From contig CAWJBB010000040.1 of assembly GCA_963840855.1 (NCBI GenBank), forward strand, positions 128,001-192,000: a stretch of 64,000 nucleotides of DNA, read 5' to 3'. The stretch comes from an uncultured delta proteobacterium. GTDB taxonomy: Bacteria > Desulfobacterota > Binatia > UBA9968. The translations under genes were made by a program, and so were the position numbers. Positions 2,918 to 62,864 of this stretch are shown here, piece by piece (position 1 is the first letter of the stretch; every line of letters starts with the position of its first letter). The notes under the pieces were generated by a model that had not been told where the DNA came from, made no database searches, and saw nothing but the letters and a program-made list of their open reading frames with translations.

Positions 2918-3283
2918 ATGAAGGTACTTAAACCCGACGAGATTCCCGCGGAACCAGCGAATAGTCCCCTGTTCACGGGTGGTCCCGTGACCCGACAAAC
3001 GCTGCTGACGCCTGAGATGAGCAACAACTTTAATCTTGCCGTCGTCAACTTTAGTGCCGGTGCCCGGAACAAGATGCACACCCATAGCAGCGATCAAGTG
3101 CTCTTTGTCACTGCCGGCAAGGGTATCATCGCCACGGAAACGCGGCAGGAGGTCATCAGCGTGGGCGATGTCGTGCACATTACGCAGGAAGAGAAACATT
3201 GGCATGGGGCTACGCCCGATTCCTCATTCTCCCACATTGCGTTAACCGCCAAAGGAAGCACGACCACGCAGGTGGAAAAGTAA
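2918..3283 (+). CDS. Cupin domain protein
   Basis: RBS aggagg; MHTHSSDQVLFVTAGKG and GDVVHI...KHWHGA cupin motifs. Confidence 0.9.
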   Translation: MKVLKPDEIPAEPANSPLFTGGPVTRQTLLTPEMSNNFNLAVVNFSAGARNKMHTHSSDQVLFVTAGKGIIATETRQEVISVGDVVHITQEEKHWHGATPDSSFSHIALTAKGSTTTQVEK

Positions 3284-3351
3284 GTCAGCCCCGCTTGTTG
3301 CTTGTTGTCCCAAATCCTGTGCCATTTTCTCAGGCGTCATCACGGGCACCA

Positions 3352-4110
3352 TCAGCTCTTGGCCGGTTCCTCATGGACCTTGCGAAGGAGCGGCGCAGCC
3401 TCCGGTGAAACCATGAACCTGATCATCGCCCGCGCGGCATCCTGCTCTTTCGACACCGTCAGCAGCGCGACGCTATTTGGACAAGGCTTGTTCAGGAATC
3501 CGGGCACCGGCCCGACATAGTCGGTCCCCGGCGCGCCCACCATGATGTTGGTCTGCTGAATGCCGAGCTCGAAGTCGCCGCGCGCCAAGAAAAATGTGAC
3601 CGGCCCGGTGCCGCCGCCGGTGAGAACGACCTTTGGCTTCAACTGCTCGGTGAGGCCGAGCTGCGCGATCCCCTCCGCGGCGTGCCGGCCGCTGCAGCCG
3701 CGCGAATAGCCGATTGACTTCGCCGCCAGCAACGTCGCCCTGTAGGCATCGACCGTGCTGATATCGGGCTTCGGCGCGCCGGCGCGCACCGACACGCCAA
3801 GACCGGCGAGCATGTACGGCGTCACGGTGCCGGCCACGACCTTGCCCTTCTTGGCGAGGTCCTCCATCGCCTCGGGATTGCCCGTGATCAGGTCCGCGGG
3901 CCCGCTGTTGAGTCTCTGCTCGAGCGCCGCACCAACTTCCTGGAGGACCGTCACCTTGTGCCCGCTCGTGCGCGCGAACGCGGCGGCCAGTTCGTGGATC
4001 CCCACCGCACCCTGGCCGGTCAGGACGATGAGTTCAGCGGCTTGGGACATGGCTCCTGATAGTCCTATGAGGATTGTACCGATAGCGCACGACCGCGATT
4101 TCATTGTCAT
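3352..4110 (-). CDS. ModA-like (SBP_bac_11) periplasmic binding protein
   Basis: Signal peptide; GVSVRAGAPKPDIST, LLAAKSIGYS and GTDYVGPVP motifs. Confidence 0.8.
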   Translation of the reverse strand: MTMKSRSCAIGTILIGLSGAMSQAAELIVLTGQGAVGIHELAAAFARTSGHKVTVLQEVGAALEQRLNSGPADLITGNPEAMEDLAKKGKVVAGTVTPYMLAGLGVSVRAGAPKPDISTVDAYRATLLAAKSIGYSRGCSGRHAAEGIAQLGLTEQLKPKVVLTGGGTGPVTFFLARGDFELGIQQTNIMVGAPGTDYVGPVPGFLNKPCPNSVALLTVSKEQDAARAMIRFMVSPEAAPLLRKVHEEPAKS

Positions 4111-4157
4111 GGCGGCCTCCCTGATGATCTGACTTTTTTTTCATCCTAGTCGCTTTT

Positions 4158-4285
4158 CTAGATGCCGGCGGTAGATCGCTGCCCGCCCCTCGAAACCGAT
4201 GCCCGGTCGATCCGACAGCGTGATGGAGCCGTTCTCCACGCGCGCGTCGTCGGCAAAGCCGCCGGAGGCGCCGAACACGCCGCAG
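4158..4285 (-). pseudogene. C-terminal remnant of an enolase-superfamily (mandelate racemase/tartrate dehydratase-like) gene
   Basis: Manual translation GVFGASGGFADDARVENGSITLSDRPGIGFEGRAAIYRRHL*, which matches the family C-terminal P..PGIG motif. Confidence 0.55.
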
Positions 4286-4311
4286 TTCGTGCAAGGTTGG
4301 CTGCGCAGCAG

Positions 4312-6675
4312 TCAGGCCCTGGCATCGAGCTCGGTCTTTACACGCTCGCGCGTGAACGGGACTTGACGAAGACGGGCACCCGTTGCGTCGAAAACTGCGT
4401 TAGCAATGGCTGCTGCTGTAACAGTGGTGGTTGTCTCTCCCGCGCCCATGGTGCTCCCGTCAGACCGGTTGATGAGGACGGTCTCGATTTTTGGAACATT
4501 GGCGTCCAGGAACAACGATGGATAGGTTGACCAGTCGATTGAAGCCACCTTTTGGTCGTCCCACGTCACTTCCTCCAGCAGCGTCCGGCTCAAGCCATGC
4601 AGGGCGCCGCCCTCAAGCTGATTCCTTAATCCGTCGGGATTTGAAATCGGGCCGCAGTCGCTGGCAATAACGAGTCGCATTAAGGTTATCTCGCCCGTGT
4701 CTTGATTGACCTCGACTTCGGCCACCATCGCGCAGTATCCGTTGTCGCCCTCATACAGCACACACGAAACGCCCCGACCCGCAGCGACGCCGGTCCGGCG
4801 AATACCGGGCCGAGGTGACGGTCGGGTCTCCCAGTTTGCTGCCTTCGCTACGGACTTCACGACTTCGGTCAATCGAGGATCGCGCAGGTGGCGAAGGCGA
4901 TACTCGACTGGATCTGCCTTCACCAGAGTGGCGATCTCGTCCATGAACGACTCATGGGCAAAGGTGTTCTGCAGCCGTGCCGGCGAGCGCAAGGGGCCTG
5001 TCCAAAACAGCGATTTGACGTTGTGCGTGAGAACACGCTGGCTGGTCACAGCACCCGTCCCTCCGCACCGTCCGCCCACACAGCCTGTGACATACGAGGG
5101 AACTGCATTGCTGCCGTTGGAAAAGTCTGTCGGGTCCGGTGCTGGTGTTCTTGCCGCGAATGCAGCAGGCTGAAAGCCGGCCAGAAAGCCGGTGATAACG
5201 TTTCCCGGATTGTTTGTCCCCGGGCGGCCGCCTAACGTCGGAGCCCACGATTCATGATCCCAAGTGATGATTGCCCCTCCGGCATCCAGGCCTGCACGTT
5301 GGTCGATGACGAAGGCAAAGCCGTAATTCTCCCAGGCCATCTCATCTTTCCGCGTGAGCTGCACCCGCACCGGTTTGCCAATTGCCTGGGACAAAAGCGC
5401 TGCATCATAAGAAACCGTGTCCGCACCGTTGATACCGTAGCAGCCGGAACCCAGTCTGAAAATGATGCGCACATTCTCGGGTGCCAGGCCGAGAACCATT
5501 GCCATGCTGTTTTTCAGCGGGTAAACCGCCTGCGTCGCCGACCAGATCGTCGCTTTACCGTCCTTTACATCGCCAACTGCACACGAGCTGCCCACCGATC
5601 CATGCATTTGGTAAGGGTAGAGGTACGTAGCTTTCACAACTCTCGCTGCGCTCGCCAATTTTTCGTCGACATCCTTCGAGTTGACGAGAAATGTGTCTCG
5701 CGTCGGCTTCTGATTCCGCAGGTATTCGTAGAAGTCACGTTGGCGCGGCAGCCCGGTACCCGGTGTCCAGGTGACCTTCAACTTGTTTGCCGCCTGAAGG
5801 GCCTGCCACGGCTTCTCTGCGACCACCCCGACGAAATTGTTCTTGACGACCACCTTCACAATGCCCGGAACACCCCGAACGGAAGCGTCCTCAACGCCGA
5901 CCAGCGTTGCCCCGACGGCCGGCGGCCTCACAACCTGGCCGTGCAGCATACCGGGCACGCGCACATTGTGGACAAACTCGAACTGTCCGGCAGCCATTGC
6001 CGGGATCTCCTCGCGCGGCACCGGCTTTCCAAGGATCGTCCATTCACTCGGATGCTTTCGTTTCGCGCCCGGGTTAAGCGGAACGCCGAATGTTCGATCT
6101 CCGACCAATTCGGCATAGCTGGCACTCTTGGAGGGGTCTGCCTTCGCGCGGATCACACCGTCCTTCACAGCAAGACGATCGACGGGTACACCCAGCTGCG
6201 CGGATGCTCTCTGCAAGAGAGCTTCGCGAGCGGTTGCACTGGCAAGGGCCAGGTTTTTCTCGTTAAAGTTTGTCGGATGCGACTGGGCGCCGGACGTCGT
6301 TCCCTGGTCCGGAGTAAGCGCCGTGTCGCACTGAATCAATTTCACGCGATCAAACGGCACGCTAAGCTCTTCGGCGATCAACTGCTTCTGCGCGGTATAC
6401 AGTCCTTGGCCTAATTCACATTTGCCGGTGTACGCGGTCACACTGCCGTCGGCGCCAATAGCGATCCACGAATCGAGCCGACTGCTACCCGCACCATCGA
6501 GGCGCTGAGCCGCTGCCGAACCGGGCGCCATCAGTCGAGTCGTCAATCCCGCCATGCTGAAGCCGACAATCAAAGCACCAGACTTTGCGATGAACTGCCG
6601 CCGCGACATTCCGGTTTTCTCGAGCGCGATGAATGCGTCAGGCGTGAGTTCCTTCGAGACGTTCAGAGGATTCAT
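4312..6675 (-). CDS. Molybdopterin-dependent oxidoreductase large subunit (isoquinoline 1-oxidoreductase beta/nicotinate dehydrogenase-like), Tat-exported
   Basis: SRRQFI twin-arginine motif; GKCELGQG, DQGTTSG, GSGCYG, NQLEGG and GAGE motifs; ATGA overlap with the upstream 2Fe-2S gene. Confidence 0.9.
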   Translation of the reverse strand: MNPLNVSKELTPDAFIALEKTGMSRRQFIAKSGALIVGFSMAGLTTRLMAPGSAAAQRLDGAGSSRLDSWIAIGADGSVTAYTGKCELGQGLYTAQKQLIAEELSVPFDRVKLIQCDTALTPDQGTTSGAQSHPTNFNEKNLALASATAREALLQRASAQLGVPVDRLAVKDGVIRAKADPSKSASYAELVGDRTFGVPLNPGAKRKHPSEWTILGKPVPREEIPAMAAGQFEFVHNVRVPGMLHGQVVRPPAVGATLVGVEDASVRGVPGIVKVVVKNNFVGVVAEKPWQALQAANKLKVTWTPGTGLPRQRDFYEYLRNQKPTRDTFLVNSKDVDEKLASAARVVKATYLYPYQMHGSVGSSCAVGDVKDGKATIWSATQAVYPLKNSMAMVLGLAPENVRIIFRLGSGCYGINGADTVSYDAALLSQAIGKPVRVQLTRKDEMAWENYGFAFVIDQRAGLDAGGAIITWDHESWAPTLGGRPGTNNPGNVITGFLAGFQPAAFAARTPAPDPTDFSNGSNAVPSYVTGCVGGRCGGTGAVTSQRVLTHNVKSLFWTGPLRSPARLQNTFAHESFMDEIATLVKADPVEYRLRHLRDPRLTEVVKSVAKAANWETRPSPRPGIRRTGVAAGRGVSCVLYEGDNGYCAMVAEVEVNQDTGEITLMRLVIASDCGPISNPDGLRNQLEGGALHGLSRTLLEEVTWDDQKVASIDWSTYPSLFLDANVPKIETVLINRSDGSTMGAGETTTTVTAAAIANAVFDATGARLRQVPFTRERVKTELDARA

Positions 6676-7195: not shown

Positions 7196-7452
7196 GATGA
7201 TAGGAAATTGCTTTTCACGCGCCTGTTCGGAACGCAGATGAATTGCCCCTCGACTGGTGGCTTAGCCCAGGTTCGAAACCTAAGCAGTTACTGGCAAGAG
7301 CGAACGAACCCTCCGATGGCTGTTTTGGGCGGAGCCTATCCGACCAGGAAGCGTTATGTCAAATTCGCTCACTATGGTTAGATTCTTAAATGGCTTGACA
7401 GGCTTCGGGATGGCTTTCACACAGGGCTGGAAATTTTCTCCGCCTCGGGGTA
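7196..7452. repeat. Duplicated promoter/leader module A, copy 2, with an extra ~40-bp internal segment
   Basis: Direct repeat of 844-1060; contains TTGACA-N18-TAGGCT on the minus strand (7333-7362). Confidence 0.9.
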
Positions 7453-8569: not shown

Positions 8570-11500
8570 GTGACCGAGGTGCGACCAACCGTCTTCATCT
8601 CTTACGCTCGCAGCGATGACGAGCCGTTCGTCGAACGGCTGCATCGAGACCTCGAGACGGCAGGGATCGACGTTTGGTGGGACCGCGACACGATGCCGAG
8701 TCGTGGTCGTACGTTCCTGCAGGAGATTCGCGACGCCATCGAGTCGGTCGACCGGGTCATTGCCGTGATCGGTCCGGCAGCCGTCCGCTCGGACTACGTC
8801 CGCTACGAGTGGGACTACGCCCTGCTCTTCGCAAAGGGCTTGCTGCCTATCTTGCGCCTGGGCGACCACACACTGCTGCCGTCCGAGTTGAGGCCGGACG
8901 TGGGTGACGGTCTCGCCGCGGTCGATTTCGGCAAGCTGCATTCCCCTGATTTCCGTGACGGACGTCCATACGACGCCGCGCTCGCCGAGTTGGCGCGGAT
9001 CATCCGGCAGCCGGTGGCCGCCCTTGCTTCCTACGATGGAACGCCGGCCTTGCCGCCACATTGGCTTGCACGGCCCGACGATCTTCAGCGGCTGCACCAG
9101 ACCGTACTGGCCGACATCCTCCGCCCGGAAGTGATGATTGCGAAGCGGCAAACGATCGCGCTGACGGGGATGGGCGGCATGGGCAAGTCGGTGCTGGCGG
9201 CAGCATTCGCTCGCGCAATCAGCACCAGGCGTTCAATGGTGGACGGCATTGTCTGGCTCACTGCCGGCCCCGAGGCGACTAAGGACACGGTGCTCGCCAA
9301 TCTGAAGGCCGTCGGCACCACGTTCGGCGACGACGTGGCGGCATACGTCGACGAGCCGGCCGCACGCAGACATCTCGCACCGGTGTTGGCCGAGAAGGCC
9401 TGCCTGATTGTGCTCGATGACATCTGGGCGCTCGAGCAGGTGAAGTCGTTCCGCGACGTCATGGGACCGCGATGCCGACTGCTCTTCACAACGCGGGACG
9501 GCGCACTCGTCACCGCACTCGACGCCACAGAACACCGCGTCGATGCCCTCTCCGACGATCAGGCGATCGCGCTCCTTGCCGACTGGTCCGGCGAGGAACG
9601 ACAGGCACTGGGTGACGACGCCCGAGCGGTCGCCAGTCAGTGTGGGAATGTGCCGCTGGCCCTCGCCCTCTGCGGCGCGATGGCCAGAGACGGAACGCCG
9701 TGGGCAGACTTGCTGACGGAACTGCGACACGCCAACCTCGCCTTTATCGAGGGTGGTCTTCCCGACTACACGTACCCAAACGTGCTGCGCGCACTGGGCG
9801 TCAGCGTCGAGATGCTTGGCCGGGTCAATCGGGTAGCGGCAGACCTGTATCTCGACCTCGCGGTTTTCCCGAGGGCTGCGCTCGTGCCCGAAGCGGCCGT
9901 GCTGACACTCTGGTGCAGAGGGGAAAGAATTTCGGAACCAGAGGGCCGCAAGCTCCTGGGCGTGCTCGCACGCAAGGCGCTGCTGACCGCGCAGGGAAAG
10001 AGTCCCGATCGTCAGGTGTCATTCCATACGCTCCAGCAGGATTACCTGAAGTCGGCGACGCGGGATCGTATCGAAGTTCTGCACGGCAACCTTCTCGAAG
10101 GGTATCGGGAGAAATGCGCGGCCGGATGGGCCACCGGCCCCAACGACGGCTACTTCTTCCAGCGACTGCCATGGCACCTTGCGGAGGCTGGCCGCCACGA
10201 GGAACTGCGCGACCTGCCGCTTCAATACGAGTGGATCAAGGCGAAGCTGGCGGCAACCGACGCACCCGCCGTGTTAGCGGACTTCGCACTCACAACCGAT
10301 CCGGACACCGCCGTCGTCGGAGGAGCACTGTTACGCGCGGCTCATGCAATCGGGCGCGATCCCCAGCAGCTTCCGGCACAGATCGTGGGACGTCTCAGAG
10401 ATGTTGATCGCCCACGAATCACATCAATGGTCACCGCAGCACGGGACGAGCGTGGATTCAGGTGGCTCGAGCCTCTGCGCCGATCGCTTCTTCCGTCAGG
10501 GCCGTTGCTGCGAACGTTCATCGGTCACACGGACGCCATCACATCTATCGCGTTGTTTGCCGACGGGCGTCGCGCGCTGTCGGGCTCCCGCGACAAGACG
10601 CTGCGATTGTGGAACGTCGAGACGGGCGTCGAGCTGCGTCGATTCGACGGCCACTCCGATGTCGTCAATGCCGTCGCGTTGCTTCCGGACGGGCGTCGAG
10701 TCCTCACTGGTTCCGGCAAGACGCTGCGGCTGTGGGACATCGAGACCGGCGAGTGTCTTCGTACGGACACGCTGATTTCCGGCGTGCGTACGCTGAGCAT
10801 GTTACCTGACGGCCGTCGAGCTCTCGTCGCCTGCTATCTCCCGACCCCGTTCAACGAACCGGACATGTGGCTGTGGCACATGGACGTGCCCGATGTACGT
10901 CCTTTGACCACAGTACGTGAGACCTTCGCCATGGCGCCGCTACCGGACGGCCGCCGCGTGCTCTCCGCGTCCGTCCGCATGACGCTCTGGGACCTGGAGT
11001 CTGGCGAGACGCTTCAGCGCTTCGAGGGGCATCGCCTGTTTGTCAATTCGCTCGCCCTGCTATCCGACGGGCGGCGCGCCCTGTCGGCCTCGGATGATCG
11101 GACCTTGCGGATCTGGGATCTGGGCACGGGAGACGAACTGCGCCTGCTCGAGGGTCACAGGCACAACGTCGAAGCGGTCGCGTTGCTGTCCGACGACAGG
11201 CGGGCTGTCTCAGGCTCCGCGGACTTCACGCTGCGATCGTGGGACCTCGAGACTGGTCAAAGACTAAGCGTGTTGGAGAACTTCTCGTCTGTGACGGCGC
11301 TCGCGATACTTCCGGGCACGAACCGCGCCCTCTCGGGCTCGGCGGATGGCGAGCTTCGGCTCTGGGATCTCGACGTGGCCGCGATACCTCGGAGCGAGGA
11401 AGGCCACGCCGATCGCATCACAGCGCTGGCCGTTCTCCCGGATGGTCAACGTGTACTCTCCGCATCCAAGGACGGCGCACTCGCCCTCTGGAATCCCGAG

Positions 11501-12442
11501 AGCGGCGCCATGTTCCACGCCCTGGACGGACAGGACGGTGCCGTGAATGCGATCGCGGTGCTTCCGGATGGCGGTCGGGTGGTGACCGCTTCAGAAGGCG
11601 GAGCGCTCACGCTATGGGACTTGGCAAGAGGCGAAAAGCGGCGGACGTTCCGGCATAACACCGAGCCGATCATGGCGGTGGCGTTGATGCCGGATGGCCA
11701 CCAGGTGCTATCCGCTCATCTTGAACGCAGTCTCCTGATGTGGGATCTGGAAGCCGACGAAACTCTCTCACCGAAACACCTCGGCTACGTCTCTCTGTAT
11801 GTCGCGCAACTCATCGTTCTGCCGGATGGTCAGCGTGTGCTCGTGAGCGCGGGCGACTACAACATGGATTCGATCCTGGCGTATGAATACGACCTGACGC
11901 TCCGAAGCCTGTCGGAGTATCAGGTGAAGACGCTCGACAGTTATCGAAGCGATTCCCAGGGGGAGCCGGCAGTGGTCGCGATGTACCCTGACGGCCGCCA
12001 CGCCGTGTCGGGCTCCTGCGACGGGACGCTTCGGCTATGGAGTCTCGATGAGGGTACCGAGTTGCGCCGTCTGAACGCCGGCAAAAGCGTCGCGACAGCG
12101 CTGGCCATTTACGCCGACGGCCAGCGCGCTCTTGCGGGCTTCGCCAACGGGCTGGTCCAGGCATGGGATCTCGAAACCGGGGCTGAGCGGCGCCGTTTCG
12201 ACGGGCACACCGATCGGATCGGTTGCATTGCGGTGCTTCCCGATGGCAGGCACGCGATCTCGGGATCGGACGATCGGACGATGCGACTCTGGGATCTCGA
12301 GGCAGGCATCTGCCTCAGCACGTTCACAGGCGACGCGCCGATGACAGCCGTTGTCGCGATCCGAAACGACCTGTTCGTCGCCGGGTCCGCCAACGGTCGC
12401 GTCCATGTGCTCGCGTCGCGGGAACCGACATCAACACGATAG
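8570..12442 (+). CDS. TIR / NB-ARC (STAND NTPase) / Apaf-1-like helical / WD40-repeat protein
   Basis: TIR motif VFISYARSD with Glu80 in YVRYEW; Walker A GMGGMGKS; Walker B LIVLDDIW; LLFTTR; GNVPLAL; DGYFFQRLPWHL helical domain; about 14 GH...LPDGRR..SGS.D.TLRLWD repeats. Confidence 0.95.
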   Translation: MTEVRPTVFISYARSDDEPFVERLHRDLETAGIDVWWDRDTMPSRGRTFLQEIRDAIESVDRVIAVIGPAAVRSDYVRYEWDYALLFAKGLLPILRLGDHTLLPSELRPDVGDGLAAVDFGKLHSPDFRDGRPYDAALAELARIIRQPVAALASYDGTPALPPHWLARPDDLQRLHQTVLADILRPEVMIAKRQTIALTGMGGMGKSVLAAAFARAISTRRSMVDGIVWLTAGPEATKDTVLANLKAVGTTFGDDVAAYVDEPAARRHLAPVLAEKACLIVLDDIWALEQVKSFRDVMGPRCRLLFTTRDGALVTALDATEHRVDALSDDQAIALLADWSGEERQALGDDARAVASQCGNVPLALALCGAMARDGTPWADLLTELRHANLAFIEGGLPDYTYPNVLRALGVSVEMLGRVNRVAADLYLDLAVFPRAALVPEAAVLTLWCRGERISEPEGRKLLGVLARKALLTAQGKSPDRQVSFHTLQQDYLKSATRDRIEVLHGNLLEGYREKCAAGWATGPNDGYFFQRLPWHLAEAGRHEELRDLPLQYEWIKAKLAATDAPAVLADFALTTDPDTAVVGGALLRAAHAIGRDPQQLPAQIVGRLRDVDRPRITSMVTAARDERGFRWLEPLRRSLLPSGPLLRTFIGHTDAITSIALFADGRRALSGSRDKTLRLWNVETGVELRRFDGHSDVVNAVALLPDGRRVLTGSGKTLRLWDIETGECLRTDTLISGVRTLSMLPDGRRALVACYLPTPFNEPDMWLWHMDVPDVRPLTTVRETFAMAPLPDGRRVLSASVRMTLWDLESGETLQRFEGHRLFVNSLALLSDGRRALSASDDRTLRIWDLGTGDELRLLEGHRHNVEAVALLSDDRRAVSGSADFTLRSWDLETGQRLSVLENFSSVTALAILPGTNRALSGSADGELRLWDLDVAAIPRSEEGHADRITALAVLPDGQRVLSASKDGALALWNPESGAMFHALDGQDGAVNAIAVLPDGGRVVTASEGGALTLWDLARGEKRRTFRHNTEPIMAVALMPDGHQVLSAHLERSLLMWDLEADETLSPKHLGYVSLYVAQLIVLPDGQRVLVSAGDYNMDSILAYEYDLTLRSLSEYQVKTLDSYRSDSQGEPAVVAMYPDGRHAVSGSCDGTLRLWSLDEGTELRRLNAGKSVATALAIYADGQRALAGFANGLVQAWDLETGAERRRFDGHTDRIGCIAVLPDGRHAISGSDDRTMRLWDLEAGICLSTFTGDAPMTAVVAIRNDLFVAGSANGRVHVLASREPTSTR

Positions 12443-12454
12443 GCACGCTGTTGA

Positions 12455-13185
12455 CTAGTTGGACAAAGTTCTCGTTAGAATCTTCGAAACTCCGGAGGTC
12501 GAGATTCCCACTTGACGAGCGACCTCGGCAACCCCTACTCCGTAATTCTCCACGAGCCCGCGAACTATCTTCGTTCTCACCGCAGGCAACCGGCCCGACG
12601 AAACCCGCTTCGGAGTTCCGTTAGCGACACTCCGCTCTTCTTGCATTCCTCAGCCACCACACGCTCGGCGTAACGATTTCCCCTTCTCGTGCAAGTTGCC
12701 GCAGCGCTCGTGCATCCGCCTCTCTAAGAATGCGCTCCACAAATTCTCCACTCCCCAATATCCGCTCATCAGATAATTCCCGGGCTCTACGCGGTCGCTG
12801 TGATCTGACCGCAAACCATTCCCCTGCCGATCGCGCCAGTCCACCCCCTACTAACTCCGGTCGCCTCCCCAACGTAACTCCCTCGGCAACAAATTTCCGG
12901 TATGCCTCCTTCGCATCGGAAGCTCGCCTGCCAAACTGCGCCAGTACACCCTCGCAGTCTTGCCACTGCCTGGCCGGCGGGCCGAGGATCGTTCCATGCC
13001 CGCAATACGGATACTTTTCCAGTTCCTTCAAATCCTTGACCAACTCCACCCTTAACGGATTCAAGTGAATATAGCGTAAAATCTCTTCGATCCGTCTCGT
13101 CATCGAAAATCTGCCGCTTTTCAATGCCTCGAACCATCACGTGGTGCAGGGTCCCTGGACTATCGAGTCTTGCTTGCCTCGCCAT
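12455..13185 (-). mobile_element. Degenerate REP-associated tyrosine (Y1/RAYT-type) transposase with C-terminal HTH
   Basis: MARQARLDSPGTLHHVMVRGIEKRQIF..D.DRRDF joins directly (near 13080) to LRYIHLNP, so the HUH segment is deleted; GRRPELVGGGL, DERILGSGEFV and EVARQVGISTSGVSK lie in broken frames. Confidence 0.85.
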
Positions 13186-13319
13186 ATGCTCATATCTTGC
13201 TTTGTAGCGGGGCTTTGGGATTAGCAAAGTTTATGCGGCGAGATTTGACCGGTGATGCGGTGAGCTATAACTGCGGCATCGCCGGCATGGGCATGTCTTT
13301 CAGAACCGGAACAAATCGA

Positions 13320-13626
13320 TCGACACGCCATATCGACAACACGAGCACGCGCCATGCGGCTGGTGACCAAAATTGCGGCGTGGCAGACGATTCTCAAGCT
13401 GGGGCTTTTCAACCTTGCCAAGAAAGCCGGCTTCACGATTCTCGCCGATCCGACGCAATATGAGATTCCGTTTCCCCAGCTTGAAGTCATCACCAGGCGG
13501 GGGTTTCTCAAGGCGCAGCCGGATGTAGTAACCCGGTATCTACGCGCCATCGTCGAAGGTATCTACATGGTCAAGCACAACCCGGAACCGTCGATCCGCG
13601 CCTCAGCAAAATCTCAGGATCGATGA
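13320..13626 (+). pseudogene. Internal remnant of an NMT1/SsuA-type ABC substrate-binding protein
   Basis: AKKAGFTILAD...IPFP....TRRGFLKAQPDVVTRYLRAIVEGI is typical of the family; both ends are missing. Confidence 0.6.
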
Positions 13627-16855: not shown

Positions 16856-17101
16856 TACTATCGCCTGTGACAATTTTGATCCTATCTGCTGGCATAATTA
16901 CGCGGACTCAATAGGCTGCTCCACCAGGAGATCAGGGGCTTCGGTGCCTTTGAGGATCTTATCCACGTACGTAGCGGCGCGGCGGTAGCACTCGACTGTG
17001 TCCGCCCCGTAGGTCATGAGCCCACGGGCATCTAAAGCTTGTGTGTTGTTTCAAGCAGCCGTCTCGATAGTTGGACTCATCCTCCTTATCCCAAGCCATG
17101 A

Positions 17102-18955
17102 CTAACGCAGCTTGATTGGGGCCTGCAATACCCACTCCCCGTTTCCACGGCGCACTTCCAGCCACAACACTTGCGACCGCGATGGCTGAATTTCGAAGTC
17201 GTACGTCTCGCCGACCGTGACGAGCTGGCGAGCCGGTCCGGGCGTAGTCTGCCCGGCCGGCAGCGTCGCGCCGTCCTTCGCCAGCGGTTTCCACGTCGTC
17301 TGCTCGACCCCGATCGACGAGGTGCGCCGTCAAGCCGACGTTGCTCGCGGTGATGTTGATAAGACGCAGGCGATTGGGCACGCCCACGCGCATGACGATG
17401 GGGGCCGGCGTGGCGCTGCCGTTCAGCGCAAACGGCTCCCGCTGGTTCTCTTGCGGGACGCCGTTCAGGCCAATGACGACGACGTGATCGGTCGCCGGAT
17501 CGTAGCGCTCGCCAGGCTCGAGGACGATGAGCGGCCCGTAGAGGCCGCCGCCCAGTTGCTCGTCTTTGTGCCAGTGCGTGTGATAAATGAACGTGCCCGC
17601 CCGCGGCGGCGTCGAACTTCGCGACGAAGGATTGTCCCGGGGGCGACCGGCGGTGCGAGATTGCCGGGCTTCCCACCCCAGCCGGGCACGCCATCGAAGT
17701 AGCTCTCAAGCTCGATGCCGTGCCAATGAATGGCCGTGGGCTCGGTCATTCGATTGACGAGGGTAATCTCGACGGGTTCGCCGCGCGTCAGTACGATCAC
17801 GGGGCCGGGAACGGGACCGGGATTGAGACGCGGGGCGTCTACGCCTTCCAGATCCATCCGGTAACCGCTCCGGTTGCCATAGCGATTGGCCTCCTCGCGC
17901 ATCACGAGGGAAAGTCGACGCGGCGGGCGCCCATCCGATGGCCGGATCGTGCTGGTCCCGGTCACGTGAATCCCGAGTACCAGTCCCCCCATCCCCGCCG
18001 CGCTGTCATCGGTCCGGTGACTCGGCATGGGCGCCGTCGCCCGGCGCATTCATGTGCATTTGTCATGTGGCAGTGAAACAACCAATTCCCTGGACGTCTC
18101 GGGCGTCCATGACATCACGAACGTCCGGGCGGAGCCAATGTATTCGGTGACCGCCGTACGTTGCTGCTCCGGGGCGAGCCGCCGTTCGACGCCGATATCG
18201 CCCGTGGCTTCGACCGTAAAGTAGAAGCCGTGCAGATGCATGGCGTGATTACCGTGTGACAGGTTGATGATGCGCCAACGCACCCGATCGCCGACTTCGT
18301 GATGAAGCTTCTCGGCGTACGGCCACGACAAGCCATTGATGGCGAACGCGTCGGCTCGGATTGACGTGGCGCGCTTTCGCGGGCGTGGCTCTCCGAAGAC
18401 CGAGATCACAAACACTCTGTCGGCCGGCGATCCCTCGCGCGGATCGACCACGATCGCGCCGCCAAGCTGGGTGTCGCGACGTTGCCGGGTGTTGACCAGT
18501 CCGGGTCCGCCGGTCGTGGCCCAATAGAAATAGGTGCCGGGAGCGTTCAACTCGAATCGGATCTCTTGCGACGCGCCGGGTGCGACCGACACCGGATCGC
18601 AGCTGCTCGGCCTCGTGCAGAGGCCGTTGACGCGCAGCGCCGACCCTAGCGAGTTCCGCAGCGTGAGCACGACGGTCGTTCCTTCGCGAACCCGGATGAG
18701 TGGTCCAGGCACGGAGAGATCAGCGCCTTCTTCACCGAACGCGGCGACTTCAATGGGCGCACCTTGCGGCCCGTCGGGACGCCAAGTGCCTGCATCGGCA
18801 TACAACCGTACATTCAGTACGTTTTCCTCGAGCCGGCCGGCCGGACGCATGTTGTCGTTAACGGCAACGGCGCCCGCCGCCGTCGAAGGCGCCATCGAGA
18901 CAAGCCACACCGTGCACCAGAGTAAGAAAGGGAGGAACATATAAAGTCCTGACAT
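17102..18955 (-). CDS. Secreted multicopper oxidase, four cupredoxin-like domains, several single-base frameshifts
   Basis: PGPLIRV; HAMHLHG; re-framed WTPERPGNWLFHCHMTMHM...GMGGLV; TAIHWHG...DGVPG; GTFIYHTHWH; AKDGATLP; GETYDFE; stop at 17102-17104. Confidence 0.85.
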
Positions 18956-19045
18956 TTTTGACGCCTCCTTTATTGATTGTCGCAACAAGATTCATAACTC
19001 CAAGCGAAGACTTTTCATTGATGCGGTTTCTCCCTAATCGCAGAA

Positions 19046-20718: not shown

Positions 20719-20940
20719 ATGAAAACTAAACTGACACTTACCATCGACGAGGACCTTATTCCTCAAGCCAAGCGGTACGCCGAAGCCCGAAGGGATTCTC
20801 TGTCCGGCTTGGTGGAGAAGGCGCTGCAGGATCTCACCCAAACGCAAGAGATACCTTTTTCTAAGCGTTGGCGCGGAAAATTCAAGGCGTCTCGTCGCGC
20901 GTCAACTCGCTACAAAGCTTTGTCCCGGCGTTATTTATGA
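20719..20940 (+). CDS. Ribbon-helix-helix antitoxin (DUF6364-like)
   Basis: MKTKLTLTIDEDLIPQAKRYA...SLSGLVE; ATGA overlap with the PIN gene. Confidence 0.85.
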   Translation: MKTKLTLTIDEDLIPQAKRYAEARRDSLSGLVEKALQDLTQTQEIPFSKRWRGKFKASRRASTRYKALSRRYL

Positions 20941-21368
20941 TCGTGCTCGTTGATACAGATGTCTTGATTGATGTCGCGCTGGATCGCCGCCCCTTTTCAG
21001 ATCCTGCGGGACGCCTGCTGGACGCGCTGCAAGAAAGGCGCGGCGAGGGTTATGTGGCGTGGCATTCGATTTCCAACTTTTATTACATGGTGGCTCCTAA
21101 GAAGGGCTCTCCGGGAGCCAAGGACTTCATTCGCGATTTATTGCGATTCGTGGGCATCTCACCGGCAGGAACAAGAGATGTCCTCTACGCTATACACCTT
21201 CCGATGGCCGACTTTGAGGACGCGCTGCAATGTGCCGCCGCTGTCCCCTGCCACGCTGATGTTATAGCAACCCGCAACGTTCGCGACTACCGCAAATCCC
21301 CGGTTCCCGCCCGAAACCCCCAGGCCGTTCTCACGGCACTGAAGGGACAAACACAAAACGCCGAGTGA
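20937..21368 (+). CDS. PIN domain (VapC-like) toxin
   Basis: LVDTDVLID, DFEDALQ and IATRNVRDY PIN motifs. Confidence 0.9.
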   Translation: MIVLVDTDVLIDVALDRRPFSDPAGRLLDALQERRGEGYVAWHSISNFYYMVAPKKGSPGAKDFIRDLLRFVGISPAGTRDVLYAIHLPMADFEDALQCAAAVPCHADVIATRNVRDYRKSPVPARNPQAVLTALKGQTQNAE

Positions 21369-32771: not shown

Positions 32772-33080
32772 TTACCTACTTCGGTGGCGCCGGCCGCCGA
32801 AGAACTGTGGATAAGCGTCAATCGGATAGTCAGCGTTGAAGGTGTCGATTCTGGGCTCGTCCGGGAATCTGCTTTCCGTCGAGTGAATGATCCAGCCATC
32901 CTGCTTCCAAACCCCCGCTGACCTGGCATCGCCGCCGCGCTTGATTAGCAGCTCGATGGTCCAATCGCTGACCCCGGCCTGCTTGAGCTTGATGATTTCA
33001 TCCACAGTCAGCGCCTGCGACACCGCCGGACATAGACAAGCCGCGACAATTAACGCCAAAAGAATCCCGATTGTTTTCAT
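32772..33080 (-). CDS. Small secreted hypothetical protein
   Basis: RBS ggagga; signal peptide; LTVDEIIKLKQAGVSD motif. Confidence 0.7.
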   Translation of the reverse strand: MKTIGILLALIVAACLCPAVSQALTVDEIIKLKQAGVSDWTIELLIKRGGDARSAGVWKQDGWIIHSTESRFPDEPRIDTFNADYPIDAYPQFFGGRRHRSR

Positions 33081-33220
33081 TGGTTCCTCCAGTGGATTCC
33101 TCCCGAGCGCGTCTTCGCATATCGAAAATGAAGGGCCGGCGCAAGAGGGCGCTGCTAACCATCCAAGAGCTTTTGATTGAAAGTCGGACTCTGACTTGGG
33201 ATGATGCAGTCGTTCTAACC

Positions 33221-33856
33221 ATGACGAAAAAAGTAAGACTCACGTTCGAAGAGCTAGCTGAAACCTCCTCGGTTACGCTCGGTCACTATGACGAGCACGC
33301 CGAGAGTTTTTGGCAGGGCACGAAGGATCACGACGTAAGCCAGAATCGCGCAGCGTTGTTACAGCATCTTCGCGGCGACCCGCCTTATCGCATTCTCGAC
33401 TTCGGCTGCGGGCCCGGGCGCGACTTGAAATTCTTCAAAGAAATGGGCCACGAAGCCATCGGACTCGACGGCGCGGAGCGCTTCGTCGAGCTTGCGCGCA
33501 GCCATAGCAGCTGTGAAGTTTGGCATCAAGATTTTCTTGGACTCAAATTGCCGGCGGAATATTTTGACGGGATTTTCGCCAACGCGTCACTCTTTCATGT
33601 GCCGAGCCAGGAACTGCCGCGCGTTCTGCGAGAGCTCTGGGCGTCACTGAAACCCGCGGGCGTATTGTTCAGCTCCAATCCGCGCGGTGAAAACCAGGAA
33701 GGCTGGAGCGACGCGCGCTACGGCGTATATTACGATTGGGGGCGCTGGAGTGAATTAGTGGCCGCCGCCGGGTTTACAGAAATCACTCACTACTACCGCC
33801 CGGCAGGACTACCACGCGAGCGACAGCCGTGGCTCGCATCGGTTTGGCGGAAATAA
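33221..33856 (+). CDS. Class I SAM-dependent methyltransferase
   Basis: ILDFGCGPGRD and FDGIFANASLFHVP. Confidence 0.95.
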   Translation: MTKKVRLTFEELAETSSVTLGHYDEHAESFWQGTKDHDVSQNRAALLQHLRGDPPYRILDFGCGPGRDLKFFKEMGHEAIGLDGAERFVELARSHSSCEVWHQDFLGLKLPAEYFDGIFANASLFHVPSQELPRVLRELWASLKPAGVLFSSNPRGENQEGWSDARYGVYYDWGRWSELVAAAGFTEITHYYRPAGLPRERQPWLASVWRK

Positions 33857-61681: not shown

Positions 61682-61748
61682 TAGTTTCTAGTTTCTGGTC
61701 TCTGGTTTCTAGTTGAAACAAGAAACTTGAAACTAGGAACTAGAAACT
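61682..61748. repeat. GTTTCTA heptamer inverted repeat
   Basis: tagtttctagtttctggtctctggtttct...agaaacttgaaactaggaactagaaact. Confidence 0.8.
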
Positions 61749-61765
61749 GTGAATTGAAAAGGCCA

Positions 61766-62864
61766 ATGATCTCCATCCGCCGCTTGCAAAAACGTTTCCA
61801 AGTAAGCGACGGCGTAGTCGCCGCCATTAAGTCCATCGATCTTGAAATCGCGGAAGGCGAGCTGTTCGTCATCGTCGGCGCCAGCGGTTCGGGCAAGACG
61901 ACTTTATTGCGCTGCATCGCGGGGCTGGAAACCCCGGACGGCGGTGAAATCCGCATCGCCGGAAAGGTCGTCTCATCCGATAATCCGCCTGCCTGGTTGC
62001 CGCCGCAGCAACGCAAGTTGGGAATGGTTTTTCAATCCTATGCCGTTTGGCCCCATTTGACGGTGTCGCAGAATATCGCGCTCCCTTTGGCCGAAGGATC
62101 GCAACGGGTGGCGCGCAGCGAGGTTGCCAGGCGGGTCAAAGAGGCGCTGCGCCTGGTTCAGCTTGAAGAACAGGCCGACCGCCCGGCGACGCTGTTAAGC
62201 GGCGGGCAACAACAGCGCGTCGCCCTCGCCCGCGCCGTCGCCGTAAATTCGCGCCTGCTTTTAATGGATGAGCCCCTGAGCAATCTCGACGCCCGCCTGC
62301 GCGAAGAGGTGCGCGGCAAGATCCGTGATCTGGCCAAACAGCTCGGCTCCACGGTGCTCTACGTTACCCACGACCAGGTGGAAGCCATGGCCATCGCCGA
62401 CAAAATCGCGCTGATGCAGGCCGGCGAACTCCTGCAGGTGGGCGCGCCCCAAGAGATCTATCACAAGCCCAACTGCGCCGATGTCGCGGAGTTCTTCGGT
62501 TCGGTCAATTGGTTCGACGGTGAGATCGTCGAATTGGGCATGGCGGCGTCGCCTTTGGGAAAACTGCGCGTCGAATGCTCATTACAAGCCGGGCGAGAAA
62601 ATTCTACTCGGCTTTCGCCCCGAGTGCCTGTTATTTACGAGCGGAGCAACCAACTGTGAACCCAATGTATTTGAAGCGAGGATCCGCTCGAGCACATTTC
62701 TGGGCGATCAGTTTCTTTTTACCGCCGTCGCCGGCGAGCGCCAGTTGACCGGCAAGAACCGCTCCGTGTCCGGCCAAAAAGACGGCGCCGTTACTCTGTG
62801 CGTGGCTCCCGCCGACATCATGGTGTTTCCGGCACGCGCCGCGCCCTCCATGGTCAACGCCTGA
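61766..62864 (+). CDS. ABC transporter ATP-binding protein (PotA/AfuC type); +1 indel near 62592
   Basis: GASGSGKT, LSGGQQQRVALARA, DEPLSNLD and VTHDQ; the TOBE-like tail is in a second frame. Confidence 0.9.

Follow-up and report, generated by a model that had tools for sequence, protein, structure and literature searches.

A TIR–NB-ARC–WD40 gene with an Apaf-1-like layout in an uncultured Binatia genome: a candidate NLR-like receptor of the AP-ATPase clade

Does an uncultured delta proteobacterium (GTDB lineage Bacteria; Desulfobacterota; Binatia; UBA9968) carry a gene built like the animal apoptosome scaffold, and what would such a gene do in a bacterium? The locus that raises this question occupies positions 8570–12442 of a 64,000-nucleotide stretch of contig CAWJBB010000040.1 (positions 128,001 to 192,000, forward strand; assembly GCA_963840855.1), which we call the window. 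An initial annotation, made from the letters alone, had described it as one uninterrupted open reading frame (ORF) with a TIR domain, an NB-ARC NTPase, an Apaf-1-like linker and WD40 repeats, and had proposed a stand-alone antiphage sensor acting through abortive infection. The layout is corroborated below by sequence, profile, fold and neighbour comparisons. As to function, the reading that we favour, and consider probable rather than secure, is that the product, a STAND NTPase of the Apaf-1 (AP-ATPase/NB-ARC) clade, is an NLR-like receptor that acts on its own and in which ligand-triggered oligomerisation would switch on a TIR NADase and lead to abortive infection.

The frame runs unbroken over 1290 codons with no internal stop and divides into the following parts (window coordinates, + strand throughout):

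8570–12442, +: whole gene, TIR / NB-ARC / WHD / HD2 / 15 WD40 blades; STAND NTPase of 1290 aa with a GTG start
8591–8989, +: TIR domain, aa 8–140, Glu80 at the catalytic position (Pfam TIR_2, E 5e-22)
9143–9811, +: NB-ARC NTPase, nucleotide-binding domain (NBD) and helical domain 1 (HD1), aa 192–414 (Pfam NB-ARC, E 6e-24; alignment to Apaf-1)
9812–10054, +: winged-helix domain (WHD), about aa 415–495, H486 at the Apaf-1 LHD / plant MHD position (Apaf-1 alignment)
10076–10285, +: Apaf-1-type helical domain 2 (HD2; APAF1_C, PF17908), about aa 503–572 (37.4 bits, cut-off 22.8)
10463–11368, +: first WD40 propeller, read as 7 blades, about aa 632–933 (29 strands in the model; W anchors at aa 681–932)
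11417–12421, +: second WD40 propeller, read as 8 blades, about aa 950–1284 (32 strands in the model)

The frame opens just four codons before the GTG, and this start is sound because the TIR strand ‘VFISYAR’ begins at residue 8, matching the family consensus. The NB-ARC match scores 85 bits against a Pfam cut-off of 23.5, the APAF1_C match came from scanning aa 381–667 alone, and many WD40 or propeller families match aa 640–1290. The Pfam scan found TIR_2 at the N-terminus and no CARD. Within the NTPase, Walker A reads GMGGMGKS (aa 200–207) and Walker B LIVLDD (aa 279–284, with D283/D284); the sensor-1 (TTR) motif is ‘LFTTRD’ with R309, the GxP-type motif ‘GNVPLAL’ aligns with ‘GSPLVV’ of Apaf-1, and the WHD segment ‘SFHTLQQDYL’ pairs with ‘YLHDLQVDFL’, placing H486 on the LHD histidine with the next Asp replaced by Thr. 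Ten residues, E80, W81, G200, G203, G205, K206, D283, W286, R309 and H486, are invariant across a family alignment of 57 sequences (37–95% identity to the query). The repeats have diverged (60–84% nucleotide identity at a 126-nt period), and the blade count of 15 adds two degenerate blades to 13 W[DNSH] anchors that recur about every 42 aa.

How far does the resemblance to Apaf-1 extend? In a comparison with solved structures, aa 196–573 align without large gaps to Apaf-1 150–527 (3sfz, E 1.4e-28), a stretch that covers Walker A, Walker B, the TTR sensor-1, the GxP motif and the LHD histidine; plant helper NLRs rank far below by sequence (8zf0, 1e-17; NRC4, 2e-9). An AlphaFold2 model of aa 1–640, built from the 57-member alignment (mean pLDDT 88.4, pTM 0.82), finds closed ADP-bound Apaf-1 as its top Foldseek match (3sfz, E 6e-22, TMq 0.61, rmsd 4.3 Å over 507 columns), with chains of the active apoptosome at TMq 0.33 and RPP1, NRC, ZAR1, CED-4 and Dark among the further ranks. 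The model of aa 621–1290 (m5ef29dc541df; pLDDT 89.5, pTM 0.77) has 29 strands, a short helix (314–318) and then 32 strands, which we read as a predicted 7-blade propeller followed by an 8-blade one; Apaf-1 itself has 7 + 8 blades. This half has its highest TMq to Apaf-1 (3j2t, 0.77; 3sfz, 0.57), and other tandem-propeller proteins reach only 0.35–0.43, meaning that just one of their propellers superposes. Its best Foldseek E-value was to 2ymu, a ‘highly repetitive propeller’. A predicted two-copy complex of the TIR (aa 1–150) scored 0.01.

As far as prediction goes, then, the apoptosome layout with a TIR replacing the CARD is real. The initial annotation was right about the frame and its domains (Pfam TIR_2, NB-ARC, APAF1_C and WD40), about the intact Glu80 and Walker motifs, and about a stand-alone gene in the apoptosome layout with an unknown ligand, and the comparison of a monomer model with Apaf-1 that it had suggested came out in favour of the closed form and of the tandem propeller. 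Its two propellers stand in the model, while its figure of about 14 repeats gives way to 15. Its interpretation is partly supported: the anatomy stands, and the proposed antiphage NADase function, which no full-length PADLOC model matches, is extrapolated from related families.

The closest solved TIR by sequence is the Acinetobacter baumannii AbTIR NADase (7uwg, E 8e-6), with E80 falling on the Glu of ‘NYELD’. In the 137-residue chain 7uwg the aligned AbTIR residue has position 78, and we take it to be E208, on the assumption that the construct starts at residue 131. The E208A mutant of AbTIR is inactive (bioRxiv 10.1101/2023.05.19.541320). In the PADLOC collection, the nearest TIR matches are TIR-SAVED (4e-11), a pAgo-associated TIR (1.8e-9) and CBASS TIR effectors, with ThsB weaker at 7e-4. 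The TIRs of the TIR-SAVED, pAgo-associated and CBASS groups are oligomerisation-activated effectors that deplete NAD+. The isolated domain narrowly passes the Pfam ThsB_TIR cut-off (23.2 against 21.2 bits), the NCBIfam Thoeris models stay far under theirs (ThcB4, 28.7 against 220), and DUF4062 reaches only E 0.1 against this protein.

Put together, these parts suggest a sequence of events. At rest the protein would be a closed, ADP-bound monomer in which the propellers and the WHD histidine lock the NTPase. A protein ligand, most likely a conserved phage protein as with Avs-type STANDs, would dock on the propeller pair; the lock would be released, ADP swapped for ATP or dATP, and the NBD-HD1-WHD modules would form a ring. 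In plant TIR-NLRs, effector-induced oligomerisation activates the TIR NADase, and here too TIR domains might crowd at the hub to make composite NADase sites, so that NAD+ would be destroyed and the infected cell would halt growth or die ahead of phage release. We infer ligand binding, nucleotide exchange, ring assembly and TIR activation from Apaf-1, plant TIR-NLRs and Avs proteins.

A protein search scored 8000 candidates and gave 465 matches, with 94% identity for the top one (1287 aa) and 48% for the runner-up, and two peptide patterns found 251 relatives in a collection of one genome per species (185,579 species), of which 80 loci were kept for the neighbour analysis. When 933 ORFs, drawn from these 80 loci and from the window's first 24 kb, were clustered, no conserved neighbour emerged: the gene itself formed the largest cluster (58 loci), and the next covered 10 loci and is one that we take to be WD40 pieces, judging from one member (the WD40 ORF L036:12798-14759). 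The lack of a recurring neighbour indicates a one-gene module. We also scanned three genes on each side in 23, taken in locus order, of the 39 loci that had enough flank. Conflict-type genes lie near the homologue in ten of these (TIR, NACHT/nSTAND/NB-ARC STAND, DUF4062, CHAT, RelA_SpoT-SLOG-RyR, NUDIX, Cas6 and PIN), and mobile-element genes only in four (IS21 with resolvase, Mu-like prophage, PrimPol and DDE transposase). PADLOC models (E ≤ 1e-8) matched 16 of 133 non-self neighbours compared with 2 of 57 window ORFs, this one window being the control, and specific matches occurred in seven loci (TIR effectors, TIR-TM, PDC-S07/PDC-S33, and Cas6 with an LmuA-like protein). The comparison is suggestive and does not amount to a controlled enrichment.

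Two settings among these loci deserve separate mention. A dense island of death- or immunity-type genes surrounds the homologue in a Desulfuromonadales genome (L002:2621-21043), with DUF4062-NACHT-FGE-sulfatase and DUF4062-nSTAND1-FGE-sulfatase proteins, a CAP12/Pycsar-type TIR protein, a 1779-aa DUF7379-CHAT-TPR-S protein and another TIR_2 protein. Loci from Anaerolineales and Verrucomicrobiota have a RelA_SpoT-SLOG(LSDAT_prok)-RyR gene directly upstream of the homologue (L004:6149-8713, L022:959-3930 and L026:1472-4947), and L024:51-2369 joins this set by clustering; in L022 and L026 it is preceded by a NUDIX gene, and the pair matches the PADLOC candidates PDC-S33 and PDC-S07. For part of the family, the RelA_SpoT-SLOG-RyR protein may serve as a recurring nucleotide-signalling companion.

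Several points weigh against an antiphage NADase receptor. No full-length model of PADLOC-DB v2.0.0 or NCBIfam for defence proteins matches the protein, with nothing above cut-off in NCBIfam; it has ten PADLOC matches, nine partial ones over the TIR and one on the WD40 part (HEAT-ARM_XIII), and no Avs or bNACHT model matches at E ≤ 0.01. Among the neighbours of homologues, several PADLOC matches are generic (Ser/Thr kinases, IstB, ArsR), and nine of the 23 loci lack conflict-type and mobile neighbours alike. In four of the 23 (L012, L022, L036 and L038) the gene is broken into at least two ORFs, from which it follows that members are often lost. The window holds no defence island: the gene sits among metabolic genes, and the two other window ORFs with PADLOC matches (33071–33853 and 61727–62656) are both more than 20 kb away. 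A conserved Glu is also kept in the alignments by the non-enzymatic TIR domains of TLRs, so that E80 alone is no proof of NADase activity, and AbTIR, according to an abstract, produces a cyclic ADP-ribose (ADPR) isomer and does not merely deplete NAD+. Finally, a literature search, with most subscription papers beyond its reach, turned up no report of a laboratory test on a prokaryotic TIR-NB-ARC-WD40 protein.

The AbTIR product leads to the best surviving alternative, in which the TIR generates a signal, making a nucleotide messenger (the cyclic ADPR isomer or something similar) for a separately encoded effector, as in Thoeris. The marginal ThsB_TIR score speaks for it, as do the nucleotide-centric conflict genes beside some homologues (L004, L022 and L026, with NUDIX at the latter two, and L024 by clustering) and the eight further TIR_2 ORFs of 323–539 aa in the same genome (G000), many for one bacterium:

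C13:7618-7980, C57:20970-21287, C73:60328-60642 and C1:86626-86901: further TIR_2 ORFs in G000
C34:84136-84516, C30:142746-143066, C26:16658-17014 and C40:51801-52028: further TIR_2 ORFs in G000

Against it, no partner gene is conserved over the 80 loci, no SLOG, NUDIX, Macro or ThsA-like gene adjoins the gene in the window, and the NCBIfam Thoeris score is a small part of its cut-off. We therefore regard signalling as unlikely and favour depletion, given the missing partner and the fact that the best PADLOC matches of the TIR are TIR-SAVED, pAgo-TIR and CBASS and not ThsB.

Among the protein-search matches, the complete domain lists have TIR_2, NB-ARC, APAF1_C and WD40, while NB-ARC and WD40 also appear in many of the others; the few named sources are Methanosarcina, a Methanoperedens plasmid, Argoarchaeum, Phycisphaerae and Omnitrophica. 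The 80 loci come from Acidobacteriota, Planctomycetota, Verrucomicrobiota, Chloroflexota, Nitrospirota, Cyanobacteria, Bacteroidota, Omnitrophota, Myxococcota, several proteobacterial classes and others, as well as from the archaea Methanosarcinaceae, Methanoperedens, Argoarchaeum and Methanospirillaceae. Relatives are sparse, yet they turn up in more than 15 bacterial phyla and in several archaea. In a quick maximum-likelihood tree of 43 full-length rows the phyla are intermixed, with strongly supported pairs across phyla and domains such as Halomonas beside an acidobacterium (100, starred) and Anaerolineales beside Methanoperedens (99, starred); support is weak (SH-aLRT 81, drawn open) for the group that joins the window protein to one Argoarchaeum and one Bryobacterales sequence. 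Compared with its 94%-identical relative, it differs at 2.5 positions per 100 aa in the TIR, 5.1 in NBD-WHD, 7.6 in HD2 and 7.1 in WD40, a pattern that fits, at the level of sequence, a conserved effector joined to a faster-evolving sensor. Homologues were seen on the Acaryochloris marina plasmid pREB7 (L076) and on a Methanoperedens plasmid (P0031), and one lies between Mu-like prophage genes (L030:2559-9739; Mu-like_Pro, Portal_Mu). These plasmid and prophage settings point to carriage on mobile elements.

The copy in the window is foreign to its genome and was recently acquired by horizontal transfer. Its GC content is 64.4% (74.7% at third codon positions), even over the TIR, NTPase and repeats, against 56.2% for the genome, so that the GC-richness noted in the initial annotation relative to the flanks extends to the assembly as a whole (7.10 Mb, 93 contigs, 94% complete, 8.3% contamination), where only 0.21% of 6784 equal-sized windows are as GC-rich. 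It is the sole NB-ARC match in the whole assembly, in which no NACHT match was found either. The N-terminal 640 aa have no match at E ≤ 1e-10 in any of 40 related genomes, which share its genus (four), family (20) or order (16) (two of them, G009 and G015, unpublished).

Some of these observations count against a second alternative, namely regulated cell death outside antiviral defence, or kin and self recognition, in which the propellers would respond to an endogenous signal or a conspecific one, a role that has been put forward for AP-ATPases of multicellular prokaryotes and is known for fungal WD40 NLRs. Such proteins have been tied to multicellular prokaryotes (Kaur et al. 2020, PMC7159879; Dyrka 2020, bioRxiv 10.1101/2020.01.06.895854), and relatives of the gene do occur in Cyanobacteria, Chloroflexota, Myxococcota and Planctomycetota. 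But the genome has a single NB-ARC copy and no NACHT match, the gene was found in none of the 40 relatives, homologues occur on plasmids and near prophage genes, and the repeats differ from the near-identical, shuffling kind seen in allorecognition NLRs, all of which makes this alternative improbable.

What surrounds the gene? The upstream genes encode a protein of the phosphoenolpyruvate (PEP)-mutase/isocitrate-lyase family, a 2Fe-2S subunit and a molybdopterin subunit. Downstream lies the remnant of a transposase:

12455–13230, −: dead Y1 (IS200-like, C-terminal helix-turn-helix) transposase remnant in three frames (tblastn with intact in-genome copies)

The remnant is convergent with the TIR-NB-ARC-WD40 gene, their stop codons 12 nt apart. 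Intact Y1 copies in the genome encode 316–329 aa and are positive for Pfam Y1_Tnp. In tblastn, 13078–13185 corresponds to aa 4–39 of intact copies (E 6e-8 to 2.8e-7 with three query copies) and, in a second frame, about 12615–13085 to aa ~118–248 (best E 9e-14 on aa 119–211); residues ~40–117 (about 78 residues, the HUH histidines included) are gone, and weak helix-turn-helix matches lie at 12455–12649. Pfam Y1_Tnp has no match at this site and 15 elsewhere in the genome, at least ten of them above cut-off. The dead transposase that the initial annotation had named is therefore confirmed, solely through comparison with the intact copies. About 90 nt from 12445 on recur within the genome on contigs C67 and C2, and we read this recurrence as a probable conserved 3′ end of the transposase gene family.

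The initial annotation had also described many neighbours as decayed, a statement checked for part of them, with signs of decay in the Y1 remnant, a broken multicopper oxidase and a weak NMT1-like fragment; errors of the metagenome-bin assembly are an alternative explanation of the apparent decay. The multicopper-oxidase domains are spread over several ORFs at 16959–18988 (−), with a TGA at 18052–18050 followed directly by an ATG, the copper-site motif ‘FHCH’ in another frame and a GC content of 62–65%; gene decay or else an assembly error would account for the stretch. At 13264–13626 (+), between the Y1 remnant and a YtkA-like gene, a 120-aa frame matches the C-terminal third of NMT1/THI5-like proteins under the cut-off (E 0.0015) and may be another gene fragment. 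A PIN_3 ORF 8.4 kb downstream (20868–21368, +; E 7e-17) may be a toxin-antitoxin toxin. GC-rich patches occur at 3001–4500 and 17001–19000 (0.62–0.65, in a surrounding region of 0.51–0.59), a pattern that a mosaic of separately acquired segments might explain. A 172-nt intergenic repeat at 7196–7367 has three more copies on the contig at 82–88% identity, one of them at 844–1015 (C40:128844-129015), and metagenome contig depth is high there; it is possibly an REP/MITE-type element.

By their flanking genes, no empty insertion site was identified among the relatives. Close orthologues of the PEP-mutase neighbour (74–79%) occur only in G007, G011 and the unpublished G015 (79%); the downstream DNA of G011 is not syntenic, and the G007 contig ends. 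For the downstream YtkA-like gene, a scan that included G009 and G015 gave a match in G002 alone, where the gene sits at the end of a contig. No direct or inverted repeats bounding an inserted segment were found around the gene. Among the pieces listed from Logan contigs of four runs, none spans the gene-flank junctions; contigs of all four runs match from 12445 on, with differing left flanks. One run, the soil metagenome X1, holds a relative about 95% alike, with one contig covering 9217–12239 at 139 differing letters in 3014, and a separate 721-nt contig that diverges upstream of 8507, its first 222 letters being unlike the window. To judge from these contigs, the X1 allele seems to sit in a different upstream context.

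A setting of this kind could also belong to an inert passenger, a recently transferred, unexpressed or unselected copy heading for decay. Besides the foreign composition, the dead transposase and the fragmented neighbours, this alternative can draw on gene ends that show no match to a sigma-70-type promoter or to a terminator, and on the broken homologues in four of 23 loci. Against it, a 3.9-kb frame is still open beside decayed genes, no family-invariant catalytic or switch residue has been lost, and the 94%-identical relative is whole as well, with substitutions that spare the TIR. We accordingly give the passenger little probability. Less probable still is a propeller clamp that senses, instead of a phage structural protein, a small misplaced host protein, such as a periplasmic c-type cytochrome or another envelope protein that reaches the cytoplasm once a phage or toxin has breached the membrane, with a 7- or 8-fold wheel and a TIR NADase hub, a reading under which apoptosome damage sensing would be a prokaryotic invention older than mitochondria, and for which the propellers match Apaf-1 in blade number and arrangement at an identity (17–18%) that precludes comparing ligand surfaces. 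Two other candidates were tried and rejected: a transcription-regulator STAND of the MalT/AfsR type, since Pfam shows no DNA-binding domain, and fungal-type shuffling repeats, the repeats here being just 60–84% alike. Nor does the protein qualify as a Thoeris ThsB, on the ThcB4 score, the PADLOC ThsB E-value and the missing partner gene. An NLR-like receptor with a NAD+-depleting TIR thus remains the reading that we prefer.

How does this protein compare with systems already described? It shares with Apaf-1 (3sfz, 1z6t, 3j2t) the end-to-end order NBD-HD1-WHD-HD2, the APAF1_C domain, the closed fold and the propeller arrangement, and differs in its just 17–18% identical WD40 region, its prokaryotic and horizontally mobile gene, and its TIR in place of the CARD, so that the output would be enzymatic rather than caspase recruitment. 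Plant TIR-NLRs (RPP1, ROQ1, WRR4A) likewise place a TIR before NB-ARC (Foldseek 7dfv/7crc, E ~1e-13, and also 7jlv), but their sensor is a leucine-rich repeat with a post-repeat domain, not WD40, and they have no HD2. Avs and bNACHT proteins similarly combine effector, STAND switch and repeat sensor in one polypeptide and spread horizontally (Gao 2022 and Kibby 2023, via PMC12881547; Lee et al. 2026), whereas they belong to other NTPase clades and their sensors are mostly TPR-like. TEP1 and NWD1 (bioRxiv 10.64898/2026.05.01.722283) join a DUF4062 TIR-like NADase, NACHT, a helical domain and WD40; the layout of TEP1, NWD1 and NWD2 is analogous, and the present protein matches the Pfam TEP1 propeller families, but theirs are eukaryotic proteins with NACHT instead of NB-ARC and a DUF4062 head. 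Fungal HET-E/NWD-type NLRs and the bacterial ‘highly repetitive’ WD40 NLRs are also STANDs with a WD40 sensor, their units being 80–90% identical (Dyrka 2020) compared with 60–84% nucleotide identity here.

The nearest class is that of the prokaryotic AP-ATPases, or ‘bacterial orthologues of Apaf-1’, with beta-propeller sensors, which have the same clade and architecture. The prokaryotic AP-ATPase class is traced by later papers to Leipe 2004, and bacterial TIR-AP-ATPase fusions are given as established by Kaur et al. (2020). According to Dyrka 2020, TIR is frequent at the N-termini of NLRs in multicellular bacteria and prokaryotic NLRs are typically NB-ARC/TPR or NACHT/WD, which makes a TIR with NB-ARC/WD40 the less common combination. 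Lee et al. 2026 (Nature, PMC13581612) built 589 STAND clades, and the sensor clusters that they report for defence-associated STANDs include ‘Apaf1-like WD40 beta-propellers’; the families that they tested at the bench are Avs7, Avs8, Avs10 and Avs11–21, and in the main text ‘WD40’ is confined to the survey section. The novelty that the initial annotation implied does not hold, since Leipe 2004 (through later papers), Kaur 2020, Dyrka 2020 and Lee 2026 already place the architecture class in print. The gene is an intact, well-preserved member of a described family catalogued from genome surveys, and as a discovery it adds little to what has been in print for years. With its clean single copy, its retained residues and a high-confidence 7 + 8 model, it is a reasonable candidate for a first functional and structural study of a family that unites the nearest prokaryotic equivalent of the animal apoptosome scaffold with the enzymatic head found in plant TIR immune receptors.

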